Positions 42,047 through 61,062 are shown, counted from the first letter of the stretch. The stretch is DNA of 64,000 bases from Bosea sp. (in: a-proteobacteria) (GCA_031412095.1 JANOCI010000015.1:22636-86635), one strand, 5' to 3'. Notes: a model not told the origin generated them from the sequence alone. Numbers and translations are program-made.

Positions 42047-42076
42047 TGCCGCCTGCCTCTCATCCGGATTGCCCCC

Positions 42077-43144
<1,068 letters not shown>

Positions 43145-44895: not shown

Positions 44896-46146
44896 TCATC
44901 CAAGGTCGCCATAGGAGATGAACGGCACGGCGTCCCCCGGCTTGATGCCGGGCGAGTCGTCGGCCAGTTCGATCAGGCCATCGGTTTCCGTGAGCGAGGT
45001 GAGCACCCCTGCGCCGTCGCGCGGATGCTTGGCCGCGTCGAAGCCGCCGTCGTCCCGCTGGCTGAGGCTGACGCGAACGAACTCACGGCGGCCAGCCTTC
45101 TTCTTGTAGGCGAAGGAGGACGTGACGCGGAAGCGCCGCGGCTCCTGCCATGAGCCGCCGCCAAGCCGCGCCAGCAATGGGCGGACCACGAAGGCGAAGG
45201 TGACATAGACCGCGACGGGATTGCCAGGCAGGCCGACGAAGGGCGTGCCATCGATCACGCCCATCGCCACGGGGCGGCCGGGCTTGATCGCGATGCGCCA
45301 GAACACCAGCGAGCCGATGCTCTCGACGGCCGGCTTGACGTGATCCTCCTCGCCAGTGGACACCCCTCCCGAAGTCACGATCAGGTCGCATTCCCGGGCC
45401 GCGGCTTTCAGCCGGCGCGCAAGATCATCGCGGGCATCGCGGATGATGCCGAGGTCGATGGCGTCGGCGCCCGCGCGCGCCACCAGCGCCATCAGCATGG
45501 CCCGGTTGGAATCGTAGATCGCGGCGTCGCCGAGCATGGAGCCGGGCTCCGTCAGCTCGTCGCCGGTGGAGAACACGCCGACCTTGAGGCGTGGCTTGAC
45601 GGGCAATTCCGGCAGCCCGAATGCCGCGGCCAGCGCAAGATCCTGCGGTCGCAGGCGCTGCCCGCCCCTCAGCGCAATGACGCCTGCCGCGATGTCCTCG
45701 CCGGCCGGGCGCATGTTGGCACCGGGGCCAAGGCCGGCCGGCAGCGTGACGAAATCGCCATCGACGTCGACATCCTCCTGCATGAACACCATGTCGGCAT
45801 CCTTCGGCATGGCGGCGCCGGTGAAGATGCGGACGGCTGTGCCCACCGCCAGGTCGCCGCTCGATGAGCCTGCCGCCACGCGGCCGCGCACCGGCAGCTT
45901 CGTCGCCTCCCCAGCGTCGAGATCGGCATGGCGGACGGCATATCCGTCCACCGCAGAGTTCGCGAAGGGCGGCAAGGCCACGGGAGCGATCAGGTCCGCG
46001 GCGAGGAAGCGGCCCTCGCAGGCGAGCAGCGGCAGGATTTCGCCGCCCTCCAGGGGCGCAATCCGCTCCGACATCAGCCGGGCGGCATCCTCGATGGTCA
46101 TCAACGGACCGCCGAAGGCAAAGCAGTCATCGGTGAGCTGTGCCAT
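44896..46146 (-). CDS. moeA: molybdopterin molybdotransferase
   Basis: 416 aa from ATG 46146. PPFANSAVDGYAV, IFTGAAMP, VFSTGDEL, TSGGVSTGEEDH, GLPGNPVA are MoeA motifs. Confidence 0.9.
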   Translation of the reverse strand: MAQLTDDCFAFGGPLMTIEDAARLMSERIAPLEGGEILPLLACEGRFLAADLIAPVALPPFANSAVDGYAVRHADLDAGEATKLPVRGRVAAGSSSGDLAVGTAVRIFTGAAMPKDADMVFMQEDVDVDGDFVTLPAGLGPGANMRPAGEDIAAGVIALRGGQRLRPQDLALAAAFGLPELPVKPRLKVGVFSTGDELTEPGSMLGDAAIYDSNRAMLMALVARAGADAIDLGIIRDARDDLARRLKAAARECDLIVTSGGVSTGEEDHVKPAVESIGSLVFWRIAIKPGRPVAMGVIDGTPFVGLPGNPVAVYVTFAFVVRPLLARLGGGSWQEPRRFRVTSSFAYKKKAGRREFVRVSLSQRDDGGFDAAKHPRDGAGVLTSLTETDGLIELADDSPGIKPGDAVPFISYGDLG

Positions 46147-46690
46147 CTGCGTCCTTCCGCGCGAGCTTCGCCAGAACCTGCGCAAGGGGCTCGGCAAAGG
46201 CAAGCGCCAGCCCGGCGACGGCCTCGACGTCATCAAGATCGACGACGGGTCGGCCGGCTGCCGGAAACGGCGTGTCCGACGCGACCGCGACGATGCTTGG
46301 GTCGCCGGCATGCAGAGGCGGCTTGCCATTGGCGGCACGGTGCACCTCGAACTTGAGATGCGCCTCGCTCTTGAAGCCTTCCACGATGATGAGATCGATT
46401 GGCGAGAGCCTGGGCAGCAGATCGGCGAGGCGCGGTTCGGGCTCGCTGCGCAGTTCGTGCATCAGCGCCCAGCGCCGGCCAGACGACACGAGGACTTCGG
46501 ACGCGCCGGCCAGGCGGTGATTGTGCGAATCCTTGCCTGGCGCATCGACGTCGAAGGCATGATGCGCGTGCTTCAGCGTGGAGACACCGACGCCGCGGCT
46601 GACCAGAAGCGGGATGAGCCTGCCGAGGAGGGTCGTCTTGCCCGCTCCGCTCCAGCCTGCGAGGCCTATCACACGTGTCATAGAGACCAT
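46127..46690 (-). CDS. mobB: molybdopterin-guanine dinucleotide biosynthesis adaptor MobB
   Basis: P-loop VIGLAGWSGAGKTTLL, then ...STLKHAHH.FDVD.PGKDS... Start ATG 46690 or 46681. 20-nt overlap with moeA. Confidence 0.85.
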   Translation of the reverse strand: MVSMTRVIGLAGWSGAGKTTLLGRLIPLLVSRGVGVSTLKHAHHAFDVDAPGKDSHNHRLAGASEVLVSSGRRWALMHELRSEPEPRLADLLPRLSPIDLIIVEGFKSEAHLKFEVHRAANGKPPLHAGDPSIVAVASDTPFPAAGRPVVDLDDVEAVAGLALAFAEPLAQVLAKLARKDADGTAHR

Positions 46691-46760
46691 CCGTTCACGC
46701 ATGAAGCCGGGCGCTTCCGCGCCCGGCAACCGTGCCTTCCAACCGGCGTTGAAGTGGAGG

Positions 46761-47771
46761 CTATTCGGCGGCCTGAAGGGTGCCAGGCATGACGCCCTTC
46801 TTCATTTCGTCGGACACCCAGAGCCCATGATGCTCGCGCGCCCAGTTGAGGTCGACCTCTCCCGATCCCATCGCATCGAAAGCGCCTTCCATGCCGATCG
46901 ATCCGATATAGGCATGGGCCAGCATCGCGCCGATCAGAACCATGCTGACCACCCCATGGACGACGTTCCAGAACTGAAGGTTGATGACCCCGCCTGCGGT
47001 GTAGGGAAACAGGAGATACCAGCCCGACACGGACAAGGCCGCGCCGCCGAGGATGACCGACCAGAACACCAGCTTCTGGCCTCCGTTGAAGCGCTTCGAC
47101 TCAGGATGGCCCTTGCCGATGAGGCCGCCGCCCTGCACGAACCAGCGCACGTCGATCATGCCGGGAATGTTGTCCCGGACCCAGACCAGGAACATCAGGG
47201 CCAGGCCGATCATGAAGGGAAACGCGAGGTAGTTGTGCGCGTATTTGCCGACCTGGGCGAAATTGGAGAAGGCCACCTCGCCGACGAGCGGGATGAGCAG
47301 CGTCTTGCCGAACGTGACGTTCAGGCCGCTGACCGCCAGGATGATGAAGCAGGTCGCCGTCGTCCAGTGAATGAAGCGCTCGATGGCCCCGAAGCGCGTG
47401 ATCGTCTGGTTCGAGCGCCCGGATTCGATCTTGATCGGGCCACGGGTGAAGAAGAAGACGGCCAGCAATCCGAGCATGCCCAGGATCGCGACGGCGCCGA
47501 TGAGATGCATCGTTCCCTGGTGGAACTCGCGCCATTCGCGTCCGGCTGGCCGGATGAGCGTCGAGGCCTTGGCGTCCGGGATGGTGATGCGTCCGCTGAC
47601 CTCCTGCCCCGCGCCGGGCCTCAGCGCATTGAGCAATTGCTCCTCGCTGACGGCGCTGGCCGTGGGATTGATCGGCGCGCCTTGCTGCGCGACGGACGGC
47701 TGCGCAAGGCCAAGCGCGAAAACCAGGGCGACGAGGCCCATGACCGAACGAATGGAACTGATGAGACTCAT
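46761..47771 (-). CDS. fdoI: formate dehydrogenase gamma (cytochrome b) subunit, long form with N-terminal periplasmic extension
   Basis: ATG 47771 preceded by GGAGGG. Signal-like N-terminus, then 4 TM with heme-ligand His residues (RFIHWTTA..., AHNYLAFP..., NVVHGV..., HAYIG). The track start 47987 overlaps fdoH. Confidence 0.82.
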   Translation of the reverse strand: MSLISSIRSVMGLVALVFALGLAQPSVAQQGAPINPTASAVSEEQLLNALRPGAGQEVSGRITIPDAKASTLIRPAGREWREFHQGTMHLIGAVAILGMLGLLAVFFFTRGPIKIESGRSNQTITRFGAIERFIHWTTATCFIILAVSGLNVTFGKTLLIPLVGEVAFSNFAQVGKYAHNYLAFPFMIGLALMFLVWVRDNIPGMIDVRWFVQGGGLIGKGHPESKRFNGGQKLVFWSVILGGAALSVSGWYLLFPYTAGGVINLQFWNVVHGVVSMVLIGAMLAHAYIGSIGMEGAFDAMGSGEVDLNWAREHHGLWVSDEMKKGVMPGTLQAAE

Positions 47772-47839: not shown

Positions 47840-48436
47840 TCAGATCGCGACGGTTTCCTTGTAGGCCGTCTTCCAGCCCCAGGCGCCCGAGCCATAGCCA
47901 CGCTTGACCACGCGCTCCTTGTAGATCTTGGCGATGATGTCGCCATCGCCGGCCAGAAGCGACTTCGTGGAGCACATCTCGGCGCAAAGCGGCAGCTTGC
48001 CTTCCGCGAGACGGTTGGAGCCATACTTCTGGAATTCGGCCGGCGACAGGTCAGCCTCGGGGCCGCCCGCGCAGAACGTGCACTTGTCCATCTTGCCGCG
48101 CGAGCCGAAGTTTCCGACCTTCGGATATTGCGGCGCGCCGAACGGGCAGGCGTAGAAGCAGTAGCCGCAGCCGATGCATAGATCCTTGGAGTGCAGCACC
48201 ACCTTGTCGACCGTCACGTAGAAGCAATCCACAGGACACACAGCGGCGCAAGGCGCGTCGGTGCAGTGCATGCAGGCCATCGAGATCGAGCGCTCGCCGG
48301 GCTTGCCGTCGTTGATGGTGACGACGCGGCGGCGATTGATGCCCCAAGGGACGTCGTTCTCGTTCTTGCAGGCTGTGACGCAGGCGTTGCATTCGATGCA
48401 GCGGTCAGCGTCACAAAGGAATTTCATGCGAGCCAT
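47840..48436 (-). CDS. fdoH: formate dehydrogenase beta (4x[4Fe-4S]) subunit
   Basis: MARMKFLCDADRCIECNACVTAC..., CMHCTDAPCAAVCP, CIGCGYCFYACPFGAP. ATG 48436 has GAGGAG upstream; the track start 48457 is a TTG. Confidence 0.88.
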   Translation of the reverse strand: MARMKFLCDADRCIECNACVTACKNENDVPWGINRRRVVTINDGKPGERSISMACMHCTDAPCAAVCPVDCFYVTVDKVVLHSKDLCIGCGYCFYACPFGAPQYPKVGNFGSRGKMDKCTFCAGGPEADLSPAEFQKYGSNRLAEGKLPLCAEMCSTKSLLAGDGDIIAKIYKERVVKRGYGSGAWGWKTAYKETVAI

Positions 48437-48453
48437 TGTTCTGTTCTCCTCGC

Positions 48454-51429
48454 TCAAGCCGCTGCAATCTGGACAAGGGTGACCTTGCCTTCATGCATGC
48501 CCGTCACCGGGTCATAACCATAGGTGGTGACCGTGTTGACGCTTTCGCCCAGCACGATCGGATCTGTTCCCTTGGGATAGTTGCCGCGCTGGTCGACGCC
48601 CTGATAGAAGCCGCCGAAATGGAACGGCATCCAGGCCACGCCCTTGCCGACCCGCTCCGTGACGAGCGCCTTGACGCGGGCTTTGGAATTGCCCTCGGGG
48701 CCGGACACCCAGACGAACTGGCCATCCTTGATGCCGCGCGCACCGGCGTCGGCGGGGCTGATCTCGACGAACATGTCCTGCTGGAGCTCCGCCAGCCACT
48801 TGTTGGAGCGGGTCTCCTCGCCGCCGCCCTCGTACTCGACCAGCCGGCCCGAGGTGAGGATGATCGGGAAGTTGCGGGCGACGCCCTTGTCCACGGCGGC
48901 TTTCTGGATCGATCCGCCCAGGTTCGGCATGCGCAGGTTCCGCTCGTCGGGACGCGCCGGCCACTTGGCGACAAGATCGGCCCGAGGCGAGTAGATCGGC
49001 TCGCGATGGACCGGGATCGGATCGGGCAGGTTCCACGCATCGGCGCGGGCCTTGCCGTTGCCGAACGGCACGCAGCCATGGGCCAGGGCGACGCGCTGGA
49101 TGCCGCCTGAAAGGTCGGTCGCCCAGCTCACCCCGTCGATGGCGTTGCCGCCGATCCAGTTGATGGTCGCCGCCTCGGCCGGGGTCAGGTCCTTGTCCCA
49201 GCCCAGGCGCTTCAGCATGCCCATCGTGAACTCAGGGTAGCCGTCCCGGATCTCGGAGCCCTTGGGGAACGAGCCCTCGGCCAGCAGCGTGACCTTGCGC
49301 TTGCTGCCGTCGGCCAGCGTCTCCTCGCGCTCGAGGCCGAAACGCGGCCGGAACGCCCCCCCGCCATTGGCTGGCTCGAGGCTGGTGTTGTAGAGCACAT
49401 GCGTGCCGGGATGCTTCAGCTCCGGCGTGCCCCAGCACGGCCAGGGCAGGCCGTAAAAGTCGTTCTCGACCGCGGAGCCCTTTTCGCCGCGCAAGGTGAC
49501 GAGGTCGAACTTGTCCTGGTTGGCCATGTGCAGCTTGAGGCGCTCCGGAGACTGTCCGGTGTAGCCGGTCGACCAGCCGCCACGGTTGATTTCGCGCAAT
49601 ACCGATTCGGCCTGGGGCTCGTCTCCGAACTTGCCTTTGATCATCGCAATGCTCTTGAACATCTCGTTCGCGAAGCCGAGCTTCTGCGCGAGCTTGTAGA
49701 TCACCCAGTAATCATTGGCCGATTCGAAGATCGGCTCCACGATCTTCTCGCCCCACTGGATCGAGCGGTTGGAGCAGGTGCGCGAACCGTCGCATTCAAA
49801 CTGCGTGCAGATCGGCAGGAGATACGTGCCGTTCTTGCGCTTGGCGAGCGAGACGAAGTTCGTCGGGTGCGGATCGGCCACGACCAGCAGGTCGAGGTTC
49901 TCCAGGCCCTTCACGGCGTCCGGAATGCGCGGGATGGTGTTTCCGCCGTGGCCGAACACGATCATCGCCTTGAGGTTGTCCTTCTGGTCGACCTGTTCGG
50001 ACGGCAGCATGGCCGCGTCGAACCAACGGGTCGACGTGTGGCCGGACAGCTCCATGTTTGCCTTGCGGCCGCGGGCGGCGCGCCCGCCCTTTGCGGGCAC
50101 CTCGTCGAAGCGGCTCTGCAGGTACTCGTAAGGCACGTCCCAGACGCGCGCCCAGTGACGCCAGGCGCCTTCGACTAGGCCGTAGTAGAGCGGCAGGTTG
50201 CCGACGTCGAGGCCCATGTCCGTCGCGCCCTGCACGTTGCAGTGCCCGCGGAAGATGTTGGCGCCCGTGCCGTCGGAGCCGACATTGCCGGTGGCGAGCA
50301 GCAGCGTGCAGATGGCGCGCACGTTCGCGGTGCCGACCGAGTGCTGCGTCACGCCCATGCACCAGATGAAGGTGGCGGGCTTGACCGTGGCGAATGTCTG
50401 CGCGGCGCGCTTGAGCTGCGCTTCAGGAACGCCGGTGATGTCCTCGACGGTCTTGGGGTCGTATTTCTCGACCTCCTTCAGCACCGCCTCCATGCCGTAG
50501 ACGCGCGACTTGATGAAGTCCTTGTCCTCCCAGCCGTTCTTGAAGATGTGCCACATCATGCCCCAGATCACGGCGATGTCGGTGCCGGAGCGGATGCGGA
50601 CATACTCGGTCGCGTGGGCGGCCGTGCGGGTCATGCGCGGATCGAACACGATGACGTTGGCGCGGTTGGTCTCCTTACCGACCAGGATGTGCTGCATCGA
50701 GACCGGGTGCGCCTCGGCCGCGTTCGAGCCCATGAAGATCACGGTCTTCGAATTGCGGATGTCGTTGTACGAATTGGTCATGGCGCCGTAGCCCCATGTG
50801 TTGGCGACGCCCGCAACCGTCGTCGAGTGGCAGATGCGCGCCTGGTGGTCGACGTTGTTCGTGCCCCAGAACGCCGCGAACTTGCGCAGCAGATAGGCGC
50901 CCTCGTTCGAGAACTTGGCCGAGCCCAGGATGTAGGCGGAATCGGCGCCGGACTTGGCGCGGATCTCCAGCATCTTGTCGCCGATCTCGCCGATCGCCTG
51001 CTCCCAGGAGATCCGGGTCCACTGCCCGTCGACAAGCTTCATCGGGTACTTGATGCGGCGGTCGCCGTGCACCAGCTCACGCACCGAAGCGCCCTTGGCG
51101 CAATGGGTCCCGCGGTTGATCGGGCTTTCCCAGGCAGGCTCCTGCCCGACCCAGACCCCGTTCGCCACTTCGGCCTTGACCGTGCAGCCGACCGAGCAAT
51201 GGGTGCAGATGTTCTTGACGACCTTCGTGCCGGTGGCGGGGCCGAAGCCAGCCGCCTCCGCCTTCCGGACCGCGCCGATCTGGATTCCGCCAGCCAGCGC
51301 CACGCCGCCGGCGACAAGGCCCGAGCGCCGCAGGAACGAGCGGCGGTCCATCACGCCGGACGACAGGCCGCCCAGGGCTGCTGCGAGTTTGCCGCGCGAC
51401 GCGTCGGCGTTCTTGCGTTTGATCAACAT
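48454..51429 (-). CDS. fdoG: formate dehydrogenase alpha subunit (Mo/W-bisPGD), Tat-exported, cysteine-type
   Basis: Twin-arginine signal (MDRRSFLRRSG), Fe-S motif CTHCSVGC, and HQARICHSTTVAGVANTWGYGAMTN aligning to E. coli HQARV-U-HGPTVA... with Cys (codon 50830-50832) in place of Sec. ORF uninterrupted. Confidence 0.93.
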   Translation of the reverse strand: MLIKRKNADASRGKLAAALGGLSSGVMDRRSFLRRSGLVAGGVALAGGIQIGAVRKAEAAGFGPATGTKVVKNICTHCSVGCTVKAEVANGVWVGQEPAWESPINRGTHCAKGASVRELVHGDRRIKYPMKLVDGQWTRISWEQAIGEIGDKMLEIRAKSGADSAYILGSAKFSNEGAYLLRKFAAFWGTNNVDHQARICHSTTVAGVANTWGYGAMTNSYNDIRNSKTVIFMGSNAAEAHPVSMQHILVGKETNRANVIVFDPRMTRTAAHATEYVRIRSGTDIAVIWGMMWHIFKNGWEDKDFIKSRVYGMEAVLKEVEKYDPKTVEDITGVPEAQLKRAAQTFATVKPATFIWCMGVTQHSVGTANVRAICTLLLATGNVGSDGTGANIFRGHCNVQGATDMGLDVGNLPLYYGLVEGAWRHWARVWDVPYEYLQSRFDEVPAKGGRAARGRKANMELSGHTSTRWFDAAMLPSEQVDQKDNLKAMIVFGHGGNTIPRIPDAVKGLENLDLLVVADPHPTNFVSLAKRKNGTYLLPICTQFECDGSRTCSNRSIQWGEKIVEPIFESANDYWVIYKLAQKLGFANEMFKSIAMIKGKFGDEPQAESVLREINRGGWSTGYTGQSPERLKLHMANQDKFDLVTLRGEKGSAVENDFYGLPWPCWGTPELKHPGTHVLYNTSLEPANGGGAFRPRFGLEREETLADGSKRKVTLLAEGSFPKGSEIRDGYPEFTMGMLKRLGWDKDLTPAEAATINWIGGNAIDGVSWATDLSGGIQRVALAHGCVPFGNGKARADAWNLPDPIPVHREPIYSPRADLVAKWPARPDERNLRMPNLGGSIQKAAVDKGVARNFPIILTSGRLVEYEGGGEETRSNKWLAELQQDMFVEISPADAGARGIKDGQFVWVSGPEGNSKARVKALVTERVGKGVAWMPFHFGGFYQGVDQRGNYPKGTDPIVLGESVNTVTTYGYDPVTGMHEGKVTLVQIAAA

Positions 51430-51672: not shown

Positions 51673-52461
51673 TCAGGCCGCGAGCGCCATTGCGCTGGCC
51701 TCGACATCCATGAACACACGGCCGACGGCCCCGACGGCCCGGTAGAACTCGGACGTGCGCGACATTTCGAGATCGACGAAAAGGCGCGACGCCCAAGGCT
51801 TCAGGTGCCGGTCGAAGAACACACGGTCATCGATCCCATCGGCCTCGAATTCGCCCAGGATCAGGCCGCGCATCACGTCGAACAGAATCGCTGCGTGATC
51901 CTCGGGCTCGCCGACACGGATCTCACGGGCAAGGCCCAGCTTCTCCATGTCGCGGCGGACGTCGGCCAGCGGACGCTCGTTCAGGAAGCCGGTGCGGTAA
52001 TATGAGCCGTAAGGCAGGATCTCGCCGCGGCCGACGCCGATGAACATGTCGAAATATTCGCGCTGGAGAGCGTCGGCGGCGACCGTCCGGGCAACGTCCG
52101 CAAGCGTCAGATGCGCGGCTCCAAGCTCGGAGGGATCGCCCTTGAGCGCGGCAAGCTGCGTCAGGACATCCAACGTCGGCGCACGCCAGAGCAGGGCGCC
52201 CAGCAAGGAATATTCGTCAGCCCGCGCCGCATCCTCGGGCTCGACATGCGGCTTCGCCGCCGCAGCGTCCACGCTCACGTCATAAAGATCGGGGCGGAGC
52301 TCCACGCGCGGGATCGACGTCGCCTGCTCCACCGCGACCACGCGGTCGGCGGGAATGCGCCGCCAGGAGGAGATGGCAGGCTGGGAAATGCCGAGCACGC
52401 GGGCAAGCGCACGCACGCCCCCGGCAGCTTCAATGGCCTTTTCCAGTCCTTGGTCCCTCAT
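51673..52461 (-). CDS. fusion protein: Cro/YdaS-like HTH domain + TorD/DmsD-family redox-enzyme maturation chaperone
   Basis: N-terminus LEKAIEAAGGVRALARVLGISQPAISSWRRIPADRVVAVEQATS (YdaS/Cro-type HTH). C-terminus QREYFDMFIGVGRGEILPYGSYY...HAAILFDVM (TorD-family). Possible starts: ATG 52461, ATG 52473, GTG 52485. Confidence 0.7.
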   Translation of the reverse strand: MRDQGLEKAIEAAGGVRALARVLGISQPAISSWRRIPADRVVAVEQATSIPRVELRPDLYDVSVDAAAAKPHVEPEDAARADEYSLLGALLWRAPTLDVLTQLAALKGDPSELGAAHLTLADVARTVAADALQREYFDMFIGVGRGEILPYGSYYRTGFLNERPLADVRRDMEKLGLAREIRVGEPEDHAAILFDVMRGLILGEFEADGIDDRVFFDRHLKPWASRLFVDLEMSRTSEFYRAVGAVGRVFMDVEASAMALAA

Positions 52462-52581
52462 GGGGAAAACCATCCTCGGAGTCACATTTTGTGCAGGCGC
52501 TTCGTCAGCGTCACCCTTGGGGCTGATAATGATAGGTTATCGCCGCAGTTTGCAACTGTTCAAAAGTTGTATCCCAAGGGC
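52462..52581 (-). promoter_or_regulatory. palindrome-dense, relatively AT-rich 120-bp spacer upstream of the HTH-TorD/FDH genes (candidate internal promoter/operator)
   Basis: CCCTTGGG (52514-52521) / CCCAAGGG (52573-52580); GATAA-N7-TTATC (52525-52541); CAGTTtgcAACTG (52546-52558); CAACT-N7-AGTTG (52553-52569). Confidence 0.35.
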
Positions 52582-53400
52582 TCAGGCGGGGCTGGCGCCG
52601 CCTCCGCGCCGGCGCACGGCGGGTTTCGAGCCCTTCTGGCCCAAATTTTCCGGATCAGACGGGATCATGCCTGTGCTGCGCTGCACAATCGGAGGCGCCG
52701 CATTTTGAGGCTTTTCTGTGTCGGAAACCATCTCGCCATCATCGGCCGCCACGTTCGAGGCCGACGCTGCCGCTGGGTCAATTTCAGTGATATGCGGCGC
52801 TGCAACATCGCTTCGGCGCACAGGGTGCGGGCCCACCGGCAGCCCGCGCTCAAGGGCCTGCGGCGGAACGTCGCAATCGACAGCGACCGCATCTGCGACG
52901 GCGGCAGGCGCGTCGGCATCGCGGCGCGCATCGCTGAACATCGTCTTGAGATATTCCCTAGCCTGCGCCATGTCGGACAGCGACAAGGGGCCATGCCCCG
53001 GCGCGCCGCCCGGCGCATTGTAGTCATGGGCGTAGTCGAGCGCGGGGCTGACAAAGTCGCGGATCGCCGGATCGACGGACCACATGGCGCGCAGCGCCTC
53101 GCGCCGCGTCTCCTCCGGCACGCCCTTGCGCATGAAGGCGGACAGATCGCCGCCGGGCTGCAGGTCGGCGACATCGGGCAGGCTGCGGACCAATTCCTCG
53201 TCGATCAACTCGCCGGTCTCGGGGTCGCGCGGCCGCTCGTCGGGTTCAGCGGCGGCCGGCATGCCTTCGGGCAGCGCGGGAGGGGGCGGAGCGGGGTGGC
53301 CGACGGCCTGCAAGTCCTCGCGCGGCTCGCCCGCCTGCCGCTTGCGTCGCGACCATCTGGTCAGGAACCCCCGATCGTCATCGCCCGCGTCGCCGGTCAT
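52582..53400 (-). CDS. DUF3306-like protein
   Basis: 272 aa from ATG 53400 (ATGA overlap with the upstream stop). The N-terminal GFLTRWSRRKRQ motif is what I recall as the DUF3306 hallmark; the rest is acidic and Pro-rich. Confidence 0.65.
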   Translation of the reverse strand: MTGDAGDDDRGFLTRWSRRKRQAGEPREDLQAVGHPAPPPPALPEGMPAAAEPDERPRDPETGELIDEELVRSLPDVADLQPGGDLSAFMRKGVPEETRREALRAMWSVDPAIRDFVSPALDYAHDYNAPGGAPGHGPLSLSDMAQAREYLKTMFSDARRDADAPAAVADAVAVDCDVPPQALERGLPVGPHPVRRSDVAAPHITEIDPAAASASNVAADDGEMVSDTEKPQNAAPPIVQRSTGMIPSDPENLGQKGSKPAVRRRGGGASPA

Positions 53401-53915
53401 GACGGCCCATCCTTGCCAGTGACAGTCTTGCCGCCCGGCTTGATGCCGAAGGCATCCTTGTTGGCCTGGTCGCGTTGGCGCTTCACGAAAGGGCGCTCGA
53501 CATGGTGCTCGCGATAGAAGGCGAGTACATGGTCGGTGACAGCCTCGGGCATGGCCACCGCTTCGACGATGTCGCCCATGCCTTCGAGATAGCCTTCGCC
53601 CTCGCTCGGATCCGCCGTGACGCCCACGACCTCGATCGGCGGCTCGATGCCTGTCGGGCGGATGCAGACCCAGAGCTTGCCATGCCCGGAGACGAAATTC
53701 TCGATCAACTGCCCGGTGTCGGACGAATACAGGCTGAGGGTGGCCGGGCCGGCATAGAACAGCTCGGAACCCGCCTGCCTGCCCAGCGACGTCCACGGAG
53801 CGACGGCAGGCGCGTCGGGAAGGACTGCGACGGGAGCCCATGCATGGTCGGCCCAGACGCTGCCGGATTCGCGCCACTCCACCACCACGCCGACCGTCAT
53901 GTACGAAACCGCCAT
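53397..53915 (-). CDS. DUF3305-like protein
   Basis: 172 aa. ATG 53915 with GAAGGA RBS, 10 nt after the upstream stop. Resembles DUF3305 proteins found beside molybdoenzyme/FDH genes (family label recalled, not verified). Confidence 0.6.
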   Translation of the reverse strand: MAVSYMTVGVVVEWRESGSVWADHAWAPVAVLPDAPAVAPWTSLGRQAGSELFYAGPATLSLYSSDTGQLIENFVSGHGKLWVCIRPTGIEPPIEVVGVTADPSEGEGYLEGMGDIVEAVAMPEAVTDHVLAFYREHHVERPFVKRQRDQANKDAFGIKPGGKTVTGKDGPS

Positions 53916-53925
53916 GCCCGTTCCT

Positions 53926-54930
53926 TCAGTTGGACGCCAGGAGCGGCAAGCCCGTGACCAGATTGTGGGGCTTGAGGCGCAGATGCCGATCCTCCGTCAT
54001 CGCCATCAGCAGATAGACCGGCTTGCCCCGCGCAGCCGCTGCAAGCCGCCCCTCGTCCTTGAACGTGAGGCTGAAAAGGCCGGCCACGCGCGCCATCAGC
54101 TCCGGAGGCACGGATTTGCCTGCCCAGAGCGCATTGCCGATCCTCGTCGCATCGGCATCCAGCCCGACGAACCAGCGCCAGTCGCCATCCTCGATGCGCT
54201 CCAGAGGCGTGATCGACACATCCGCCCCGTGCAGATGCGCGATCCAGATCTCCAGCGCCCGCGCCAACGCAGCCCGGCCTGACGGCTCGCCGCCAAGGTC
54301 CAGCACCATGTCGAACGCATCGGAGCGCTGCCAGTAGCCATCAGCGTTGCCGCGCTTCAGCACATCGAGCTTTTTCGATGCGGCCTCGCCCATCATCGAC
54401 AGCAGCGGGGAGGCATGGCGTTCCTCCTCGTGCAGTTCGACGATGTCCGAATCAGCCAGCAGCATCGTGCCGTCCTGGACGGTGACGCGCTGGGACCTGA
54501 AAAAACATTCCGCGGCCCGCACGACGAACGGATCGTCGCATCCATCGAGCGCATTGCGCAGGATCACGTGGGCCATCTGCAGCATGAACAGCGGCGGCAC
54601 GCCCTTCCAGCCATCCCGTGTCAGCGCCATGTAGGCGGCCTCCAGCGTCGGCGCCCTCACCAGCGCATCGCGGAAGGCCAGGACGAAGCGCCAGTTCTCG
54701 CGCGCGTCCTCATCGACAAGCGCGGCGATCCCGGCGGGCGAGACCTGAGAGTGAGGGTCGTCGAGGAGCCGGGCATGCAGCGCGCGCTCGGCGGCGCAGG
54801 CGTCGTCGGGCGGCACCAGCTCCTTGCGGGCGAGGTACGCCTTCAGATATTCGTCCGTCAGCACAAGGCCTCCCGCGTGATCGTGCTCCAGCAGGACATG
54901 GCCGGACGAGGCCCAGAAGTGCCTGCTCAT
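53926..54930 (-). CDS. conserved hypothetical protein (334 aa, no recognisable catalytic motif; possibly the family labelled DUF6352)
   Basis: Uninterrupted ORF in the operon frame with ATGA overlap to the upstream gene. Soluble, no Cys cluster. Family label is from memory only. Confidence 0.6.
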   Translation of the reverse strand: MSRHFWASSGHVLLEHDHAGGLVLTDEYLKAYLARKELVPPDDACAAERALHARLLDDPHSQVSPAGIAALVDEDARENWRFVLAFRDALVRAPTLEAAYMALTRDGWKGVPPLFMLQMAHVILRNALDGCDDPFVVRAAECFFRSQRVTVQDGTMLLADSDIVELHEEERHASPLLSMMGEAASKKLDVLKRGNADGYWQRSDAFDMVLDLGGEPSGRAALARALEIWIAHLHGADVSITPLERIEDGDWRWFVGLDADATRIGNALWAGKSVPPELMARVAGLFSLTFKDEGRLAAAARGKPVYLLMAMTEDRHLRLKPHNLVTGLPLLASN

Positions 54931-55505
54931 CGCTTCGCTCCCGTGCCCGCATCAGCCAGCGACGCAAGGTCGACGCGCTCCAGCGGCGCATCCTCATCGC
55001 CATCGGCCTCGAAGAAGTCGAAGGCCCGGAACCCGCTCCGCGGCGCGTCCGGGCCAAGCGCCTCCGCCCGTGGGACCAGCGTGCGGAAGCGCTCGCTCAT
55101 CTGGCCATCCTCCAGCCCGCGATGGACGGCGACCAGCGTCTGGGCCGGATGGTCGCAGAGCGATGCCGCAAAGGCGATCTCCTCGGACGCAGCCGCATGG
55201 GCGGCCGCCATGTCCGGCGCGCCAAGCCGGAGCATCAGGGCCTCCGCGAACATCTCGACGGCGCGGTCACGCTCCGCCTCCGTCACCGGCGTCACGATGG
55301 CCAGCGTGGACCAGCCGAACGAGGCGGCGCCCAGAAAGCCGGAGCGGAAGGCCGCTCGGTCCTTCGGGCCCATCGCGTCGACATCGGCGTCCATGAACAT
55401 GAAGGAGCCCGGCACTGCCCACTCGCCGGGTTCCGCCGCCTGCGCAAAGACGAACGTATCGGACGGATCGAGCCGGATGGTCCTGAGGAGCTTGAGGCCG
55501 CTCAC
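54927..55505 (-). CDS. conserved hypothetical protein (192 aa; possibly the family labelled DUF6505)
   Basis: GTG 55505 overlaps the upstream TGA (GTGA). N-terminus MSGLKLLRTIRLDPSDTFVF... The longer track ORF (to 55700) overlaps the upstream gene. Confidence 0.55.
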   Translation of the reverse strand: MSGLKLLRTIRLDPSDTFVFAQAAEPGEWAVPGSFMFMDADVDAMGPKDRAAFRSGFLGAASFGWSTLAIVTPVTEAERDRAVEMFAEALMLRLGAPDMAAAHAAASEEIAFAASLCDHPAQTLVAVHRGLEDGQMSERFRTLVPRAEALGPDAPRSGFRAFDFFEADGDEDAPLERVDLASLADAGTGAKR

Positions 55506-56266
55506 AGCTTGGGCGCCCCGTTGGCGGCGTCGAACCAGTCGCTCCGGGAGAGCGCCTCGATCAGGCTGGTGCGTATCTCGCCGCCTTGCGTCCTGATCAG
55601 GAGGTCGCCATTCGGCTCGACCCCATGGCGCACGCCGGTCTCGGGGGCGATCCGGTCCAGCCAGCGCTTGACCACGGCCTTCGGGCCGCGCGAGGTCCAT
55701 TCGTCGGCGCCGTGCATGAGGTGGCGGCAGAAACTTTCGACCATGTCGACGGCGGTGACGTCGCCAAAGCCCAGCTCGTCCATGCCCACGCCGGCGCCGA
55801 CCGCAAAGGAGCGCGGCTCGCCGTCTGGCCCAGGCATCGCGACCGACCTCAGCATCGCGCCGAACACCAGCCAGTCCGGCGTCTCGTCGTCTGCGCAGGC
55901 CTCAGGCCAGGCCGTGCGTCCGCCCCCGATCAATCCGTGATCCATGATGAGCGCGTCGGGCCAGCCGAAGTTCAGGGGCCGCTCGGGCGGGCAGTGGACG
56001 GCCATCATGTCGGCCAGCGCGTTCATGCCGAGATAGTGGCCTAGCCTCGCCGTCATCAGCGGCTCCTCCGGCTCCAGCACCACCGCGAACTCGACCAGAT
56101 CATAGCGGCGGACCCACACGAGCGAAGACGCGCCCAGTTCGCCCGCGTGCCTGACGGCATGGGCAAAGGCGTCGCCGCCCTCGCGCAGGGCCGTCGCGGC
56201 GAAACCTGGCGGAAGCACCGGATCGCGGCGCATCGAGGCCAGGCGTGATGACGAGCTTGCAGACAT
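55502..56266 (-). CDS. BPL/LplA/LipB-fold ligase-like protein, degenerate (no glycine-rich GRGRxGR loop)
   Basis: LVEFAVVLEPEEPL...LGMNALADMMAV...PLNFGWPDALIMDHGLIGGG parallels the BirA core (LYLS...L..G.A.A..L...KWPNDL....K.GGIL). Possible starts: ATG 56266, ATG 56233, GTG 56281. Confidence 0.5.
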   Translation of the reverse strand: MSASSSSRLASMRRDPVLPPGFAATALREGGDAFAHAVRHAGELGASSLVWVRRYDLVEFAVVLEPEEPLMTARLGHYLGMNALADMMAVHCPPERPLNFGWPDALIMDHGLIGGGRTAWPEACADDETPDWLVFGAMLRSVAMPGPDGEPRSFAVGAGVGMDELGFGDVTAVDMVESFCRHLMHGADEWTSRGPKAVVKRWLDRIAPETGVRHGVEPNGDLLIRTQGGEIRTSLIEALSRSDWFDAANGAPKL

Positions 56267-56373: not shown

Positions 56374-58431
56374 ATGATCAGGACGAAGCGGATTGTCGCG
56401 GTGTGTTCCTGCGAGGACACGATGCCGCTCGATCTTGTCGCCATCGGCAAGGGCTCTGGCGGGGCCGAGGTCAGGACGGCGCGTCATCTCTGCCGCAGCC
56501 AGATCGAGACCTTCAAGGCGATGCTGGGGCCGGAGACCCTGGACTTGACGGTCGCCTGCACGCAGGAGGCGCCGTTGTTCGCCGAAGTGGCGGAAGAGGC
56601 CGGCTTCGGGCGCGAGATCGCCTTCACCAACATCCGCGAGGCCGCTGGATGGTCGGACCAGGCCCGGGCGGCCGGCCCGAAGATGGCGGCGCTGCTGGCG
56701 GCCGGCGGCGAACCCATGGCGCCGACCAGGTTCACCACCCTGACGAGCGCGGGCGTGGCTCTGGTCTATGGCCGCGACGAGACCGCCATCGACATCGCGC
56801 GGCAACTGTCGGGCGGGCTCGACGTCACGGTCGTCCTCACCAGGCCAAGCGGCACGGCCCCGATCGACGTGGCTCCGATGCGGACGGCCGATTTCCCGAT
56901 CTTCAAAGGCACTGTCACGGCGGCGGCAGGCTGGCTCGGGGCGTTCGAGCTGACGGTCGACGACTTCGCCGCCGCGCTCGTGTCTTCGCGCGCCAGGCTC
57001 ATGTTCGGCGAGGCCCGCAACGGCGCGCGCTCGAACTGCGACATCGTCATCGACGTGACAGGCGCAGCGCCGCTCTTCGCGGGCGGGGACCTGCGCGCGG
57101 GCTACCTTCGGGCCGATCCGGCCAGCCCGGCCGCGGTCGCCGAACTGATCGCCAAGGCGTCAGGCCTCGTCGGCGAGTTCGACAAGCCGCAATATGTGAC
57201 GCTGACCGAGGGCCTGTGCGCCCATTCGCGCTCCAAGAAGATCGGCTGCACCCGCTGCCTGGAGCTGTGCCCTGCCGGGGCCATCACCCCGAACGGCGAT
57301 CATGTCGCCGTGTCCGCGGAGATCTGCGCGGGGTGCGGGGCCTGCGCCTCAGTCTGCCCGACGGGAGCGATCACGTACCAGCTGCCGCCGCAGGACGTGG
57401 TGATGCGTAAGCTCAGGACGCTGCTGCTGACCTACGCCGAGGCAGGCGGCCGGAACGCGGTCGTGCTGGTGCATGACGGCGACCATGGCGAGCCCCTGAT
57501 CGACGCGCTGGCGCGCTTCGGGCGCGGCCTTCCGGCGCATGTGCTGCCGCTGCGCGTCAACGAGATCACGCAGGCCGGGCTGGAGCTCAACGCCGCCGCG
57601 CTGGCCTACGGCGCTTCCGCCATCCGCTTCCTGGCCAAATCCAGGCCGAAGCACGACTTGTCGGGCCTTCAGCGCAACATCGACTACGCCAACAGGCTTG
57701 GCGCCGCGCTCGGCTTCGGCGAAGGCCGCGCCGGACTGGTCGAGACCGACGATCCTGACGCGCTGCGCACGGCCCTCGATGCGGTGCAGCCGGCGCATGC
57801 CGCGGCGTCGCCAGCGAAATTCAGGCCCATGGGCGAAGGACGGCCGCTCCTGAAGGCCACGATCGACGAACTCCGCCGCGCTGCGCCCTCGCCCGTCGCC
57901 AAGGTCGCGATGCCGGAGCGCGCGCCCTTCGGCGGGCTCGAGATCGACGCCCAGGGCTGCACGCTCTGCCTCGCCTGCGTGTCGGCCTGCCCAGTGCACG
58001 CGCTGCAGGACGACAAGGACGCGCCGAGGCTGAGCTTCCAGGAAGACCTCTGCGTCCAATGCGGGCTATGCGCGGCCATCTGCCCCGAAAAGGTCATCAG
58101 CCTCGTCCCGCAGATCGACTTCGAGGCCTGGAGCCAGCCGCCGCGCCTCATCAAGGAGGAGGAGCCGGCCGCCTGCATCGGCTGCGGCAAGGCCTTCGGC
58201 GTCAAATCCACCATCGAGCGGATCGTCGCCAAGCTCGAGAACAAGCACTGGATGTTCGCAGGCGACATGGCCAAGCGCACGTCGCTGATCCGGATGTGCG
58301 AGGATTGCCGGGTCGAGGTCGTCGTCAACGAAAGCTTCGACCCGCACGAGAACCGCCCGCGCCCTGCGCCGAGGACGACGGAGGATTATCTCAGGGAGCG
58401 GCGCGAGAGGGGCGAGGACCCGTTGGGGTGA
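56374..58431 (+). CDS. large (685 aa) multi-[4Fe-4S] ferredoxin-domain protein with unknown N-terminal domain
   Basis: ATG 56374 with GGAGG 6 nt upstream. CTRCLELCP, CAGCGACASVCP, CTLCLACVSACP, CVQCGLCAAICP motifs, a C-terminal CIGCG...CEDCR pair, and a Cys-containing N-terminal about 300 aa (VAVCSCEDT, HLCRSQ, VACTQEAPLF). Confidence 0.8.
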   Translation: MIRTKRIVAVCSCEDTMPLDLVAIGKGSGGAEVRTARHLCRSQIETFKAMLGPETLDLTVACTQEAPLFAEVAEEAGFGREIAFTNIREAAGWSDQARAAGPKMAALLAAGGEPMAPTRFTTLTSAGVALVYGRDETAIDIARQLSGGLDVTVVLTRPSGTAPIDVAPMRTADFPIFKGTVTAAAGWLGAFELTVDDFAAALVSSRARLMFGEARNGARSNCDIVIDVTGAAPLFAGGDLRAGYLRADPASPAAVAELIAKASGLVGEFDKPQYVTLTEGLCAHSRSKKIGCTRCLELCPAGAITPNGDHVAVSAEICAGCGACASVCPTGAITYQLPPQDVVMRKLRTLLLTYAEAGGRNAVVLVHDGDHGEPLIDALARFGRGLPAHVLPLRVNEITQAGLELNAAALAYGASAIRFLAKSRPKHDLSGLQRNIDYANRLGAALGFGEGRAGLVETDDPDALRTALDAVQPAHAAASPAKFRPMGEGRPLLKATIDELRRAAPSPVAKVAMPERAPFGGLEIDAQGCTLCLACVSACPVHALQDDKDAPRLSFQEDLCVQCGLCAAICPEKVISLVPQIDFEAWSQPPRLIKEEEPAACIGCGKAFGVKSTIERIVAKLENKHWMFAGDMAKRTSLIRMCEDCRVEVVVNESFDPHENRPRPAPRTTEDYLRERRERGEDPLG

Positions 58432-58451: not shown

Positions 58452-59888
58452 CTACCGCGTCACCTTCTCCAGCCACTCCACCAGCGCCTTGCGGTCTTCC
58501 GCGCTCGTGATCGTCTGCTCGGGCATCTTGGTGCCGGGCGTCATGGCGTTGGGGCCGATCTCGAACAGGCGGGCGATGGTGTCCGGGGTCCAGACGATGT
58601 CCATGTCCTTCAGCGCCGGCGAGAAGTTATAGCCCGGCAGCGCGGCGATGCGGCGGCCCATGACGCCGTGCAGCGTCGGCCCGGCGCGGTTGCCGCCATC
58701 GTGTGTCAGCGTGTGGCAGGCTGCGCAGGCGCGGAACACCGCTGCGCCCCGCTCTCCGGCAAGGGGCAGGCCGGCGAGCGGATCGGCGGCCGCGCGCGTC
58801 ACGACAGGGCCGATATGCTCGCCGGTGAGGGCGTTCCAGCGCCTGACCAGCCGGTCCATGCCTCCTGAGAGCAGTTCGCGCCCATCGGCCGAGAACGCCA
58901 GCGACCAGACCGGCAGGCCGGGGCCGGCCAGCGCGGCGCGGACCTGCCGCGTCGCCCGGTCGATGACCGCCACCTGCCCGCGGATGCCGCCTGCCGCCAG
59001 CGCCGAGCCGTCGCGGCTGATGGCGAGCGCGATGAGCGGCGTCTCCGCGATGGCGATTTCGCTGATCTGTCCGCCGGCGCCGACCAGGCGGAGGACGCCG
59101 TCCGCTCCCGCCACGGCGACCTCGCCGTCAGGCGCGGCGACGACGGCGTTCAGCACGGCGGGCAGCGTGACGATGCGCGGGACGCCGCCGTTTGCGGGCC
59201 AGAACCTGAGCGTCGCGTCATAGCCGGAGGTGACGGCCATGCCGCCCGGCAGGAACGTCACGCCGTTGACCTGCCCCTGATGGCCGGCCAGCACCCTCGC
59301 CTCTCCGCCGCCCAGCGGCGTGACGCGCGCCGTGCCGTCCCACGAGGCCGAGGCGAGCAGCGCTCCATCCGCCGAGACGGACAGTCCCGAGATCGGGCCT
59401 GAGTGCCCGGCGATGACCTGATCCGGCTCGGCCTTGCCGGCCCGCCACAGCGCGATGCGTCCATCCTCGCCGCCGCTGGCGAAGCGCCCGTCCGGCAGGC
59501 TTGCCGCAGCGTTGACCGAGCCTTCATGGAAGCGCAGCACGGCGTCGGCTGCGCCGGCCTCCAGCCGCCACAGGATCACGGATTGGTCGAATGAGCCGGT
59601 GATGGCCATCCGTCCGTCCGCCGAGACCGCGACCGCGCGCACCGGCCCGCCATGGCCGCGAAGCTCCTGGGCGTGAGCTGCCGTGATGCTTGCGGTCACC
59701 ATCAGGGCGAGCGCAGCCAGACTTTCCAGAAACCTTGAGCCTCTCGAAGGTGTCGTCCCCGGCGGCCTGCAGGGTCGGGAAGGGTATCCGCTCTTGGCTG
59801 ATTGGCTCGGTGGAACCCCTTCCCTCGCTGTTGGCTCGCCGGGGATGACACCGATTGACGATCCGGAATTACGTTGCGGAGCCTTCAT
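58452..59888 (-). CDS. WD40 beta-propeller (7 blades) fused to a C-terminal mono-heme cytochrome c domain; N-terminus uncertain
   Basis: Seven GH..(P)V...SADG...G..D..(V/I).W-type repeats, then a CAACH heme-binding site with downstream ...GTKMPEQ... (Met ligand). Signal-like ALALMVTASITAAHAQ. ATG 59888 lies 1 nt after the argE-like stop. Confidence 0.8.
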   Translation of the reverse strand: MKAPQRNSGSSIGVIPGEPTAREGVPPSQSAKSGYPSRPCRPPGTTPSRGSRFLESLAALALMVTASITAAHAQELRGHGGPVRAVAVSADGRMAITGSFDQSVILWRLEAGAADAVLRFHEGSVNAAASLPDGRFASGGEDGRIALWRAGKAEPDQVIAGHSGPISGLSVSADGALLASASWDGTARVTPLGGGEARVLAGHQGQVNGVTFLPGGMAVTSGYDATLRFWPANGGVPRIVTLPAVLNAVVAAPDGEVAVAGADGVLRLVGAGGQISEIAIAETPLIALAISRDGSALAAGGIRGQVAVIDRATRQVRAALAGPGLPVWSLAFSADGRELLSGGMDRLVRRWNALTGEHIGPVVTRAAADPLAGLPLAGERGAAVFRACAACHTLTHDGGNRAGPTLHGVMGRRIAALPGYNFSPALKDMDIVWTPDTIARLFEIGPNAMTPGTKMPEQTITSAEDRKALVEWLEKVTR

Positions 59889-59889
59889 C

Positions 59890-61062
59890 TCAGTTCGCCA
59901 CGCACCAGTCGCCCAGCCGCCGCATGAAGGCCTCGCCATCGGCAAGGGCCTGCAAGGAGATGTGCTCATCTGGCTGATGGGCCTGGTTGATCGAGCCGGG
60001 CCCGCAGACCACGGTGGCCGCGCCGCCCTGCTGGAAATAGCCGGCTTCCGTGCCGTAGGGCACGGTGATGGTGCGGTTCCGGGATGAAAGCCGCATGGCG
60101 AGAACCTCCGCGGGCGAGCCGGGCATCGGCTTCAGGCCGGGCACCGACACGTTGTTGACGGTCTCGATCCCGACGCAGGGAAACCCGTTCGCGAATCGCG
60201 GCAGCACGACGGACTCGCCGAACTGCCTGAACCGTTCCGGAATCTCCGCGGGATCAAGATCCGGGAGCCCGCGGAACTCCCACTCGAACGTGCATGTCCG
60301 CGCCAGGATGTTGCGGGCGTTGCCGCCGTTCAGCCTGCCGACATGCACTGTGGTGCAGGCGGGATCGAAGCGGCCGGAGGCGTCGCCGCGCGCCGTCATC
60401 TCCTGGTCGATCCGGTCAAGCTCGGCGATCAGCAGCGCAGCCATCGTGATGGCGTTGGCCCCGAGGAACGGCTTCGAGGAATGTGCCTCGAAGCCGGTGA
60501 CGGCCGTGTTGAAGGTGACGACGCTCTTGTGCGCGTCGGCGATCTCGAGATCGGTCGGCTCCCCGACGATGACGGCAAGCGGCATCGGCATGTCCCTGCC
60601 GAAGCGCGCGATGCCGTCCGCCACCCCGAGGCAGGTCGTCTCCTCGTCATAGGACAGGAAGAGGTGGATCGGCGTCCTGAGGCCAAGGCCGAGGAAATGC
60701 GGGACGAGGCTCAGCGCCAGCGCCAGAAAGCCCTTCATGTCGACCGCGCCGCGCCCATAGGCCTTGCCGTCGGCGACGCGGAGCGTCCACGGGTCGGAGG
60801 TCCAGCTCTGGCCGGCGACGGGCACGACGTCGGTGTGGCCCGACAGGACGACGCCCGGCCTGTCGGCAGGGCCGATCGTGGCGAGGATGGCCGCCTTGTC
60901 GCCCTGGGCGTTGGGCAGGCGCACGAACGGCACGCCCCAGGCGGCCAGGTAAGCCTCGACGAAGGCGACGAGGGCCAGGTTCGAACGGTCGCTTTCGGTG
61001 TTGAAGGACACGAGACGCGCAAGCAGCTCAAGCGCGGAATGACGGGGGGCGGCGCTTGTCAT
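59890..61062 (-). CDS. argE: M20-family metallopeptidase, acetylornithine deacetylase (ArgE)-like
   Basis: 390 aa. LLARLVSFNTESD, LSGHTDVVP, GRGAVDMKG, ...DEE... metal-ligand pattern of ArgE/DapE/CPG2. Confidence 0.75.
   Translation of the reverse strand: MTSAAPRHSALELLARLVSFNTESDRSNLALVAFVEAYLAAWGVPFVRLPNAQGDKAAILATIGPADRPGVVLSGHTDVVPVAGQSWTSDPWTLRVADGKAYGRGAVDMKGFLALALSLVPHFLGLGLRTPIHLFLSYDEETTCLGVADGIARFGRDMPMPLAVIVGEPTDLEIADAHKSVVTFNTAVTGFEAHSSKPFLGANAITMAALLIAELDRIDQEMTARGDASGRFDPACTTVHVGRLNGGNARNILARTCTFEWEFRGLPDLDPAEIPERFRQFGESVVLPRFANGFPCVGIETVNNVSVPGLKPMPGSPAEVLAMRLSSRNRTITVPYGTEAGYFQQGGAATVVCGPGSINQAHQPDEHISLQALADGEAFMRRLGDWCVAN

Follow-up and report, generated by a model that had tools for sequence, protein, structure and literature searches.

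Formate dehydrogenases (FDHs) of the FDH3 type hold, in their alpha and beta subunits, the molybdenum cofactor bis-molybdopterin guanine dinucleotide (bis-MGD) together with five [4Fe-4S] clusters, and since these enzymes are periplasmic and exported by the twin-arginine translocation (Tat) system, the bis-MGD and the five Fe-S clusters must be inserted while the protein is in the cytoplasm. In E. coli, TorD binds MobA and apo-TorA at the step of molybdenum cofactor (Moco) insertion, and the cytoplasmic NapF assists the maturation of NapA. In Campylobacter and Wolinella, FDHs of the same type occur with TorD-like and small Tat genes. In a survey of NarJ-family chaperones, Bay et al. (2015; PMC4464133) reported DUF3305 and DUF3306 genes upstream of 60% of the DmsD-type FDH operons and a copy of a 4Fe-4S (hybA/fer4) gene also upstream of dmsD-fdhGHI operons; the survey labels DUF3305 and DUF3306 putative membrane proteins and proposes no function for them. 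The literature on FDH3 of M. extorquens names four fdh3 genes only and leaves the upstream accessory genes unnamed (PMC12180729). Full-text searches with the DUF names, PF16917 and the PDB entry 3bfm returned the 2015 survey as the only relevant paper, and searches combining FDH, ApbC/Mrp, TorD and maturation returned nothing relevant. Here we analyzed a stretch of 64,000 nucleotides from Bosea sp. (JANOCI010000015.1:22636-86635; the window), in which five minus-strand genes, denoted g1–g5 in the order of transcription, stand at the head of an FDH gene array. Unless a related locus is named, coordinates are counted within the window.

Comparison of sequences and gene neighbourhoods indicated that the five genes belong to alphaproteobacterial periplasmic FDH as an accessory set, conserved yet mosaic in composition, and we lean towards the interpretation that g1–g5 constitute a cytoplasmic set for cofactor loading and pre-export maturation of FDH3. 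A scan of species-representative genomes with the profile of DUF6352, the family of g3, yielded at least 591 loci, and the best 80 of these, mostly from named Hyphomicrobiales and a few from Rhodobacterales, were examined by mapping with the window proteins and family hidden Markov models (HMMs). Species-level loci with enough flanking sequence numbered 52, and the results showed that a polyferredoxin gene, g1, g4, g5, a TorD-family chaperone gene, the gene of a small Tat-signal protein and the genes of FDH alpha, beta and gamma were present in all 52 and g2 in 50; as the loci had been picked by DUF6352 itself, 52/52 measures the fidelity of the partner genes. The co-occurrence with FDH genes that the original prediction had left to a neighbourhood search was thus borne out within the window's clade. 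The same array was found on annotated plasmids of Sinorhizobium, Bradyrhizobium and Microvirga, where the beta subunit is labelled 'FDH3'.

The junctions between the five open reading frames were as first read: g1/g2 GTGA (55505-55502), g2/g3 ATGA (54930-54927), a 10-nt gap between g3 and g4 containing GGAA ahead of the ATG at 53915, and g4/g5 ATGA (53400-53397). Among related loci, a 4-nt start/stop overlap was observed for 49 of 70 g1/g2, 56 of 73 g2/g3, 32 of 83 g3/g4 and 61 of 79 g4/g5 junctions. The couplings within g1–g5 exceed chance, and the genes form a translationally coupled operon. The predicted order of the TorD, FDH, mobB and moeA genes holds as well, with the 685-aa Fe-S protein of the array lying on the opposite strand, divergent from g1 (Table 1). 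Judged by its TIGR02811 protein, Tat-signal alpha subunit, fdh3B-type beta subunit and cytochrome b gamma subunit, the operon is of the FDH3 type. The active-site residue of the alpha subunit is cysteine (ICHSTT), where E. coli FdoG and FdnG have selenocysteine.

Table 1. Features of the window and of related loci, with positions, strands and the evidence for each assignment.
Feature	Position	Strand	Evidence and remarks
g1, BirA-like pseudo-ligase	55502-56266	-	254 aa; PF16917 BPL_LplA_LipB_2, Pfam E 3.5e-45
g2, DUF6505	54927-55505	-	192 aa, GTG start overlapping g1 stop; Pfam E 5.9e-54, 182 bits
g3, DUF6352	53926-54930	-	334 aa; Pfam E 7e-69, 233 bits
g4, DUF3305	53397-53915	-	172 aa; Pfam E 4.6e-31, 108 bits
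g5, DUF3306	52582-53400	-	272 aa; Pfam E 8.9e-22, 79 bits
g5-TorD spacer	52486-52581		96 nt; ATAG-N8-CTAT-like palindrome, window copy ATAACCTATCATTAT
TorD/NarJ-family chaperone, N-terminal YdaS/Cro-type helix-turn-helix (HTH)	51673-52485	-	PF02613 E 4.7e-27, PF15943 E 3.5e-16
Small Tat-signal protein, 'formate dehydrogenase region TAT target', 69 aa	51441-51650	-	TIGR02811, 52 bits vs cut-off 48.45
FDH3 alpha, Tat signal DRRSFLRRSG	48454-51429	-	Translation; ~35% identity to E. coli FdoG; homologues annotated FDH alpha
FDH3 beta, 4x[4Fe-4S]	47840-48457	-	Translation; homologues annotated fdh3B
FDH3 gamma, membrane cytochrome b	46761-47771	-	HMM and tblastn to annotated gamma subunits; maximum hydropathy 2.68
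mobB	46127-46729	-	HMM match; homologues annotated MobB
moeA, molybdopterin molybdotransferase	44896-46140	-	41% identity to annotated molybdopterin-binding (MoeA-like) protein, Sinorhizobium locus L001
685-aa polyferredoxin, divergent from g1	56374-58431	+	Pfam Fer4 families
WD40 beta-propeller with C-terminal cytochrome c (CAACH)	58452-59969	-	Translation; hydrophobic N-terminal segment
ApbC/Mrp with 65-aa DUF6494, recurrence in related loci	L172 10673-11950, L173 10634-11878, L176 8300-9559; L018, L034, L040, L049, L062, L066, L074, L075, L079

Pfam placed g1, g4 and g5 in the families expected from the sequence (biotin protein ligase (BPL)/LplA-like, DUF3305 and DUF3306, respectively) and assigned the two genes first read as unknowns to DUF6505 and DUF6352. 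The gathering cut-offs for DUF6505, DUF6352, DUF3305 and DUF3306 are 24–25 bits, and the matches span nearly the full profiles. That none of the five had an assigned function was also found to be so: the Pfam entries are of the DUF type, no NCBIfam functional model exists for any of g1–g5, the solved relative of g1 is of 'unknown function' by title, and one relevant paper was retrieved. The sole NCBIfam match was that of g4 to NF011058 ('MobA, DUF3305 domain-containing'; profile positions 220-374 of 382, E 9.5e-23), a family of MobA-DUF3305 fusions, to the C-terminal half of which g4 corresponds. Neither a Tat motif nor a hydrophobic segment of transmembrane strength was found in g1–g5 or in the polyferredoxin, and all of these proteins are acidic. 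They are thus predicted to be soluble and cytoplasmic, devoid of a signal peptide. In DUF3306, a FLxRWSRRK motif at the N-terminus and an RR(H)GGA(L/S)P tail at the C-terminus (RRHGGALP in g5) enclose acidic low-complexity linkers and a conserved block in the centre. These short conserved end motifs, joined by disordered acidic stretches, give DUF3306 the look of an adaptor. Searches of the PDB with the sequences and profiles of g2–g5 gave nothing credible. The AlphaFold2 models were confident for both g3 (predicted local distance difference test (pLDDT) score 86, predicted template modelling (TM) score 0.86) and g4 (pLDDT 88; mostly beta-strand plus three helices); a Foldseek search of the PDB with the g3 model returned nothing at E<1, and the fold searches with the g3 and g4 models gave noise alone (E>0.2, TM<0.26). 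An all-versus-all hhalign comparison, in which TorD, ApbC, MobB and the polyferredoxin were included with the module families, showed no hidden homology, and the profiles of g1–g5 were not similar to the TorD alignment.

The only solved relative of g1 is 3bfm (E 3e-8), titled 'biotin protein ligase-like protein of unknown function', which is 57–64% identical to family members in the FDH3 neighbourhood of Roseobacteraceae, where the gene is coupled to apbC. When a profile of 73 members of the g1 family was compared by hhalign, it aligned with residues 149-303 of E. coli BirA (E 4e-4) and gave no alignment with LplA or LipB. The WPxD motif, a glycine, the core of the catalytic domain (aligned with that of BirA over WPND...G) and the C-terminal SH3-like domain are kept. 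Segment 110-148 of BirA, which contains the GRGRRGR biotin/ATP loop, has no counterpart in g1, where a short 'RRYDLVEF' stretch stands instead, and BirA K183, the catalytic lysine (K133 in LplA), aligns with L112 of g1; the position is hydrophobic in the 73-sequence consensus and is not lysine in 3bfm either. Thus, the absence of the glycine-rich loop noticed at the outset was confirmed, and the catalytic lysine proved to be lost as well. Since loss of both removes the canonical adenylation chemistry, we call g1 a pseudo-ligase: by its sequence, it lacks what marks a functional BPL, LplA or LipB despite its homology to the BPL fold.

The original prediction had left it undecided whether g1 is a pseudo-ligase or ligates something other than biotin or lipoate. 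The BPL fold and the conserved WPxD...GG core would fit an active ligase-type enzyme with FDH3 or a partner protein as the target of a covalently attached small molecule, but the deletion of the GRGRRGR region and the hydrophobic residue at the K183 position throughout the family, 3bfm included, argue against this, and several complete FDH3 loci do without g1. A biotinyl or lipoyl acceptor domain was not noticed among the annotated neighbours, the genomes not having been searched for one. With both adenylation motifs gone, we therefore consider an active ligase highly improbable and retain the pseudo-ligase assignment.

The array does not run straight into the gene of the HTH-TorD chaperone, as had been stated, as a spacer of 96 nt intervenes between g5 and TorD in the window (median 120 nt among 72 loci). 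The aligned spacers share a palindrome-like motif, ATAG-N8-CTAT, which is a candidate internal promoter or operator. A DNA-binding chaperone together with a palindromic spacer could tie the expression of the FDH operon to chaperone occupancy. An Rfam scan of 44-60.5 kb detected neither a Moco riboswitch nor any other RNA family, and a scan for sigma-70 promoters and terminators was uninformative. Much as BirA is a repressor that senses its ligand, the module might monitor the supply of molybdenum, Fe-S clusters or cofactor, or the state of apo-FDH, and feed back on transcription via HTH-TorD. The Cro/YdaS-type HTH on TorD of the window clade, the conserved palindrome and the descent of g1 from BirA, a bifunctional repressor, would agree with such a sensing function. 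However, g1 has no DNA-binding domain (the N-terminal winged HTH is missing) and none of the ligand-activation motifs, the genes are kept in Roseobacteraceae, Azospirillum and Variovorax although TorD lacks the HTH there, and five or six co-translated proteins would be an unusually heavy sensor. A regulatory role is thus very unlikely.

Outside the window's clade, the composition of the set varies. In nearly all loci examined, DUF3305 and DUF3306 go along with FDH3, and as a rule the polyferredoxin and TorD are there too. The DUF3305-DUF3306 pair lies directly ahead of the TorD, small Tat protein and FDH genes, often overlapping, on Roseobacteraceae plasmids, in Azospirillum brasilense and Variovorax and on the metagenome contigs L168 and L179, and just downstream of the FDH genes in the contig family L164–L167; in all of these loci, some or all of the g1–g3 families are missing. 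The Variovorax genes are co-directional and overlapping in the order DUF3305, DUF3306, polyferredoxin, TorD, small Tat protein and FDH, with the polyferredoxin gene overlapping both the DUF3306 and the TorD genes. The BirA-like gene and DUF6505 travel together, and on the Roseobacteraceae plasmids this pair is start/stop-coupled to ApbC and preceded by DUF6494, with DUF6352 missing. DUF6505 is missing from some loci; in one locus the polyferredoxin gene is followed by DUF6352, with neither the BirA-like gene nor DUF6505, and A. brasilense has kept the BirA-like gene alone of the g1–g3 families. This distribution gives a core of DUF3305/DUF3306, usually with the polyferredoxin, to which the BirA-like protein, DUF6505 and DUF6352 are lineage-specific additions. 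The proposal of an undescribed multi-protein system therefore stood as regards a real accessory set, whereas a single, indivisible five-protein system gave way to a core with optional additions. Database proteins that seem to fuse the polyferredoxin with DUF6352 (P0232, P0163) or DUF6352 with DUF3305 (P0174) were rejected as frameshift artefacts, since the linker is out of frame, DUF6352 restarts at its own methionine and FDH alpha on the same contig is also split. The frameshift-affected region is L168 7154-10161, and error-prone assemblies are apparently behind the 'fusion' proteins in the database.

The polyferredoxin consists of two 2x[4Fe-4S] ferredoxin domains, a C-terminal CxxC...CxxC and an unassigned, cysteine-containing N-terminal region of ~280 aa, and its likeness to PDB entries is confined to the ferredoxin domains. 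An ApbC/Mrp Fe-S carrier (GKGGVGKST, CPxC) is coupled by 4 nt to the BirA-like and DUF6505 genes on three Roseobacteraceae plasmids, and 8 Hyphomicrobiales loci have ApbC directly after the polyferredoxin gene; in one Rhodobacterales locus, it is placed after FDH gamma. Both ApbC and DUF6494 are absent from the window. The N-terminus of DUF6494 (SMRKFLKQVGVTSQ) resembles a twin-arginine motif, with no hydrophobic region, and hhalign gave a weak match over 15 residues between the signal of the small Tat protein and the DUF6494 N-terminus. The idea that FLxRWSRRK of DUF3306 or SMRKFLK of DUF6494 acts as a Tat-signal mimic engaging TorD is speculation and was not adopted.

Alternatively, the polyferredoxin could form a cytoplasmic redox complex with part or all of the g1–g5 set, i.e. 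an enzyme or electron-routing module tied to formate oxidation and not an assembly machine, which could serve the reductive activation or protection of FDH, or use electrons derived from formate where the cytochrome b subunit faces the cytoplasm. The only recognizable relatives of the polyferredoxin are electron-wire polyferredoxins and ferredoxin domains (FwdF, MvhB, HdrA, HycF), the neighbouring ApbC could merely mature the polyferredoxin, and the many invariant charged residues of DUF6352 (R138, E141, R145, Q147, D160, K320 and N323) are typical of an active site. On the other hand, FDH3 is periplasmic and has a quinone-reducing cytochrome b subunit of its own, the polyferredoxin has no membrane segment, several FDH3 loci that are complete in other respects lack the polyferredoxin and g1–g3, and in Variovorax the polyferredoxin gene is placed between the DUF3306 and chaperone genes, upstream of the structural genes. 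We therefore regard a redox complex as rather unlikely. The gene next to the polyferredoxin in the window encodes a WD40-cytochrome c protein, a homologue of which was found in 46 of the 52 loci, located either next to the polyferredoxin gene or behind FDH gamma; on Roseobacteraceae plasmids, the homologue beside FDH gamma is annotated 'c-type cytochrome'. This protein is probably periplasmic and a candidate for a redox partner of FDH3 in that compartment.

Genes for Moco synthesis and insertion were common in the neighbourhood: within 10 kb of the cluster, 83 loci contained mobA in 17, mobB in 18, moeA in 26 and fdhD in 14 cases. The window has mobB and moeA after the gamma subunit, and homologues of fdhE, fdhD and mobA were not found in its 64 kb. 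A tblastn search with E. coli FdhE (E<=1e-3) gave no match in the window or in ~100 fetched FDH3 loci. The original prediction had named maturation, modification or electron routing as possible roles. Of these, maturation is best supported, since cytoplasmic proteins are encoded in coupling with a dedicated TorD gene, DUF3305 occurs in fusion with MobA, ApbC is operon-coupled in related loci, Moco genes are neighbours and an FdhE homologue is missing; electron routing found no specific support, since the five proteins and the polyferredoxin are cytoplasmic and the enzyme is periplasmic.

According to the maturation model, g1–g5 and the polyferredoxin would be soluble cytoplasmic proteins that prepare the Tat-exported FDH3 for export. 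In a first layer, DUF3305 and DUF3306, usually with the polyferredoxin, would cooperate with the TorD-family chaperone and link the bis-MGD synthesis of MobA to the apo-alpha subunit, taking the place of the FdhE-type factors of E. coli. A second, lineage-specific layer, made up of the pseudo-ligase, DUF6505 and DUF6352 and elsewhere also of ApbC/Mrp and DUF6494, would support the delivery of Fe-S clusters to FDH3 or to the polyferredoxin, the pseudo-ligase acting as a binding scaffold and not as an adenylating enzyme. The trio of pseudo-ligase, DUF6505 and DUF6352 would be a clade-specific extension, probably one that serves the supply of Fe-S clusters. Our analysis itself showed the coupling and synteny of the genes, that their products are of cytoplasmic character, that g1 has lost the motifs of a ligase and that ApbC and MobA are linked to the set; the physical interactions and all biochemical steps of the model we infer.

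A number of findings weigh against this model. The genes of the BirA-like protein, DUF6505, DUF6352 and the polyferredoxin are each absent from some FDH3 loci and thus are not universally required in cis. Neither of the two modelled proteins, g3 and g4, resembles a known cofactor-binding or chaperone fold, and conserved sets of cysteine/histidine ligands were not seen in g1, g2, g4 or g5. Polyferredoxins are electron wires more often than assembly factors. The literature searches turned up neither an experiment on any of the five families nor a phenotype, and gene neighbourhood cannot tell assembly, activation, protection and regulation apart. On a plasmid of Azospirillum oryzae (L174), neither annotation nor an HMM scan revealed FDH within 12 kb of a DUF3305-DUF3306 pair, possibly a relocated or orphaned copy. 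The pair (11821-12946) adjoins a Tn7-like transposon with TnsA/TniQ genes.

A further point on the same side is a distant clade of DUF6352 (~34% identical) in 80 metagenome loci (L084–L163), none of which contained FDH or any of the partner families within 10 kb. The DUF6352 family is thus not exclusive to FDH. The neighbours were variable housekeeping genes: DUF6352 of L090 (9941-11035) adjoins clpS-clpA and icd, and rnhA, gloB, methyltransferase and SLT genes were found in other loci. As the neighbours differ between loci, clpS-clpA/icd was rejected as the general context of stand-alone DUF6352. These stand-alone genes raise the alternative that some genes of the set, DUF6352 above all, have a general cellular role unrelated to FDH and are merely carried in the alphaproteobacterial operon. 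In the window's clade, however, DUF6352 is start/stop-coupled on both sides and its partners occur in 52 of 52 loci, and the distant stand-alone clade could be paralogous or exert its function in trans. A general role is thus quite unlikely.

In a bolder form of the maturation model, the pseudo-ligase, DUF6505, DUF6352 and the polyferredoxin, elsewhere with ApbC and DUF6494, would be an unrecognized, dedicated machine of new folds for metallocofactor assembly or activation, with DUF3305/DUF3306 as Moco-insertion adaptors that replace FdhE in FdhE-less Tat-exported FDHs; we put this forward tentatively, as possible but doubtful. Stronger still would be the version in which DUF6352 is a new enzyme that chemically modifies the cofactor or FDH itself.

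Beside moeA, the translations indicated an operon for an ABC transporter of the sugar or glycerol-phosphate type (solute-binding protein, two permeases and ATPase; 38174-43144, plus strand) and a gene resembling aromatic amino acid/histidine ammonia-lyases (43239-44867, plus strand). Both appear unrelated to the FDH cluster.

The five Pfam families and the core association of DUF3305/DUF3306 with FDH are already known, the link of DUF3305, DUF3306 and fer4 to TorD-type FDH operons having been published in 2015 (PMC4464133), so that this part of the array cannot be called undescribed. Partly new, as a described unit, are the layer of pseudo-BirA, DUF6505 and DUF6352, the links to ApbC and DUF6494, the mosaic structure and the absence of FdhE. 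FDH3-type enzymes occur widely among Proteobacteria, be they soil, plant-associated, marine or methylotrophic, and are relevant to CO2/formate biocatalysis, and the gene set offers a testable lead on how FdhE-less periplasmic FDHs gain bis-MGD, the sulfido ligand and five Fe-S clusters. Should the maturation role prove true, co-expression of the accessory genes could be the missing requirement for producing active FDH3-type enzymes in heterologous hosts. The orphan structural-genomics entry 3bfm gains a genomic context, and DUF6352 and DUF3305 stand out as two families with confident models that have no match in the PDB.

When compared with the survey of Bay et al., the association with FDH was identical, whereas DUF3305 and DUF3306 of the window have no hydrophobic segment, which contradicts the membrane label; the survey does not mention the BirA-like, DUF6505, DUF6352, ApbC or DUF6494 genes (PMC4464133). 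The TorD/DmsD/NarJ chaperones with MobA, FdhD/FdhE and NapD/NapF of E. coli are likewise cytoplasmic accessories encoded beside a Tat-exported bis-MGD/Fe-S enzyme. Like those maturation systems, the array has a TorD-family chaperone, a link to MobA by fusion and links to mobB, moeA, mobA and fdhD by neighbourhood, and its cytoplasmic polyferredoxin recalls NapF. Unlike in those systems, g1–g5 are not homologous to TorD, FdhD, FdhE, NapD or NapF, FdhE was not found, and g3 and g4 have no structural relative in the PDB. With BirA, a class II BPL, g1 shares the catalytic core and the SH3-like domain, whereas the winged HTH, the GRGRRGR loop and the catalytic lysine are missing. Of the Mrp/NBP35/ApbC type, to which dedicated assembly factors such as Ind1/NUBPL for complex I belong, the window has no ApbC, and in related loci a genuine ApbC, with a deviant Walker A motif and CPxC, is operon-coupled to the BirA-like/DUF6505 pair or to the polyferredoxin. 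The closest likeness in enzyme type is to FDH3 of M. extorquens (fdh3DABC), which shares the small TIGR02811 Tat protein, the Tat-signal alpha subunit, the fdh3B beta subunit and the cytochrome b gamma subunit.

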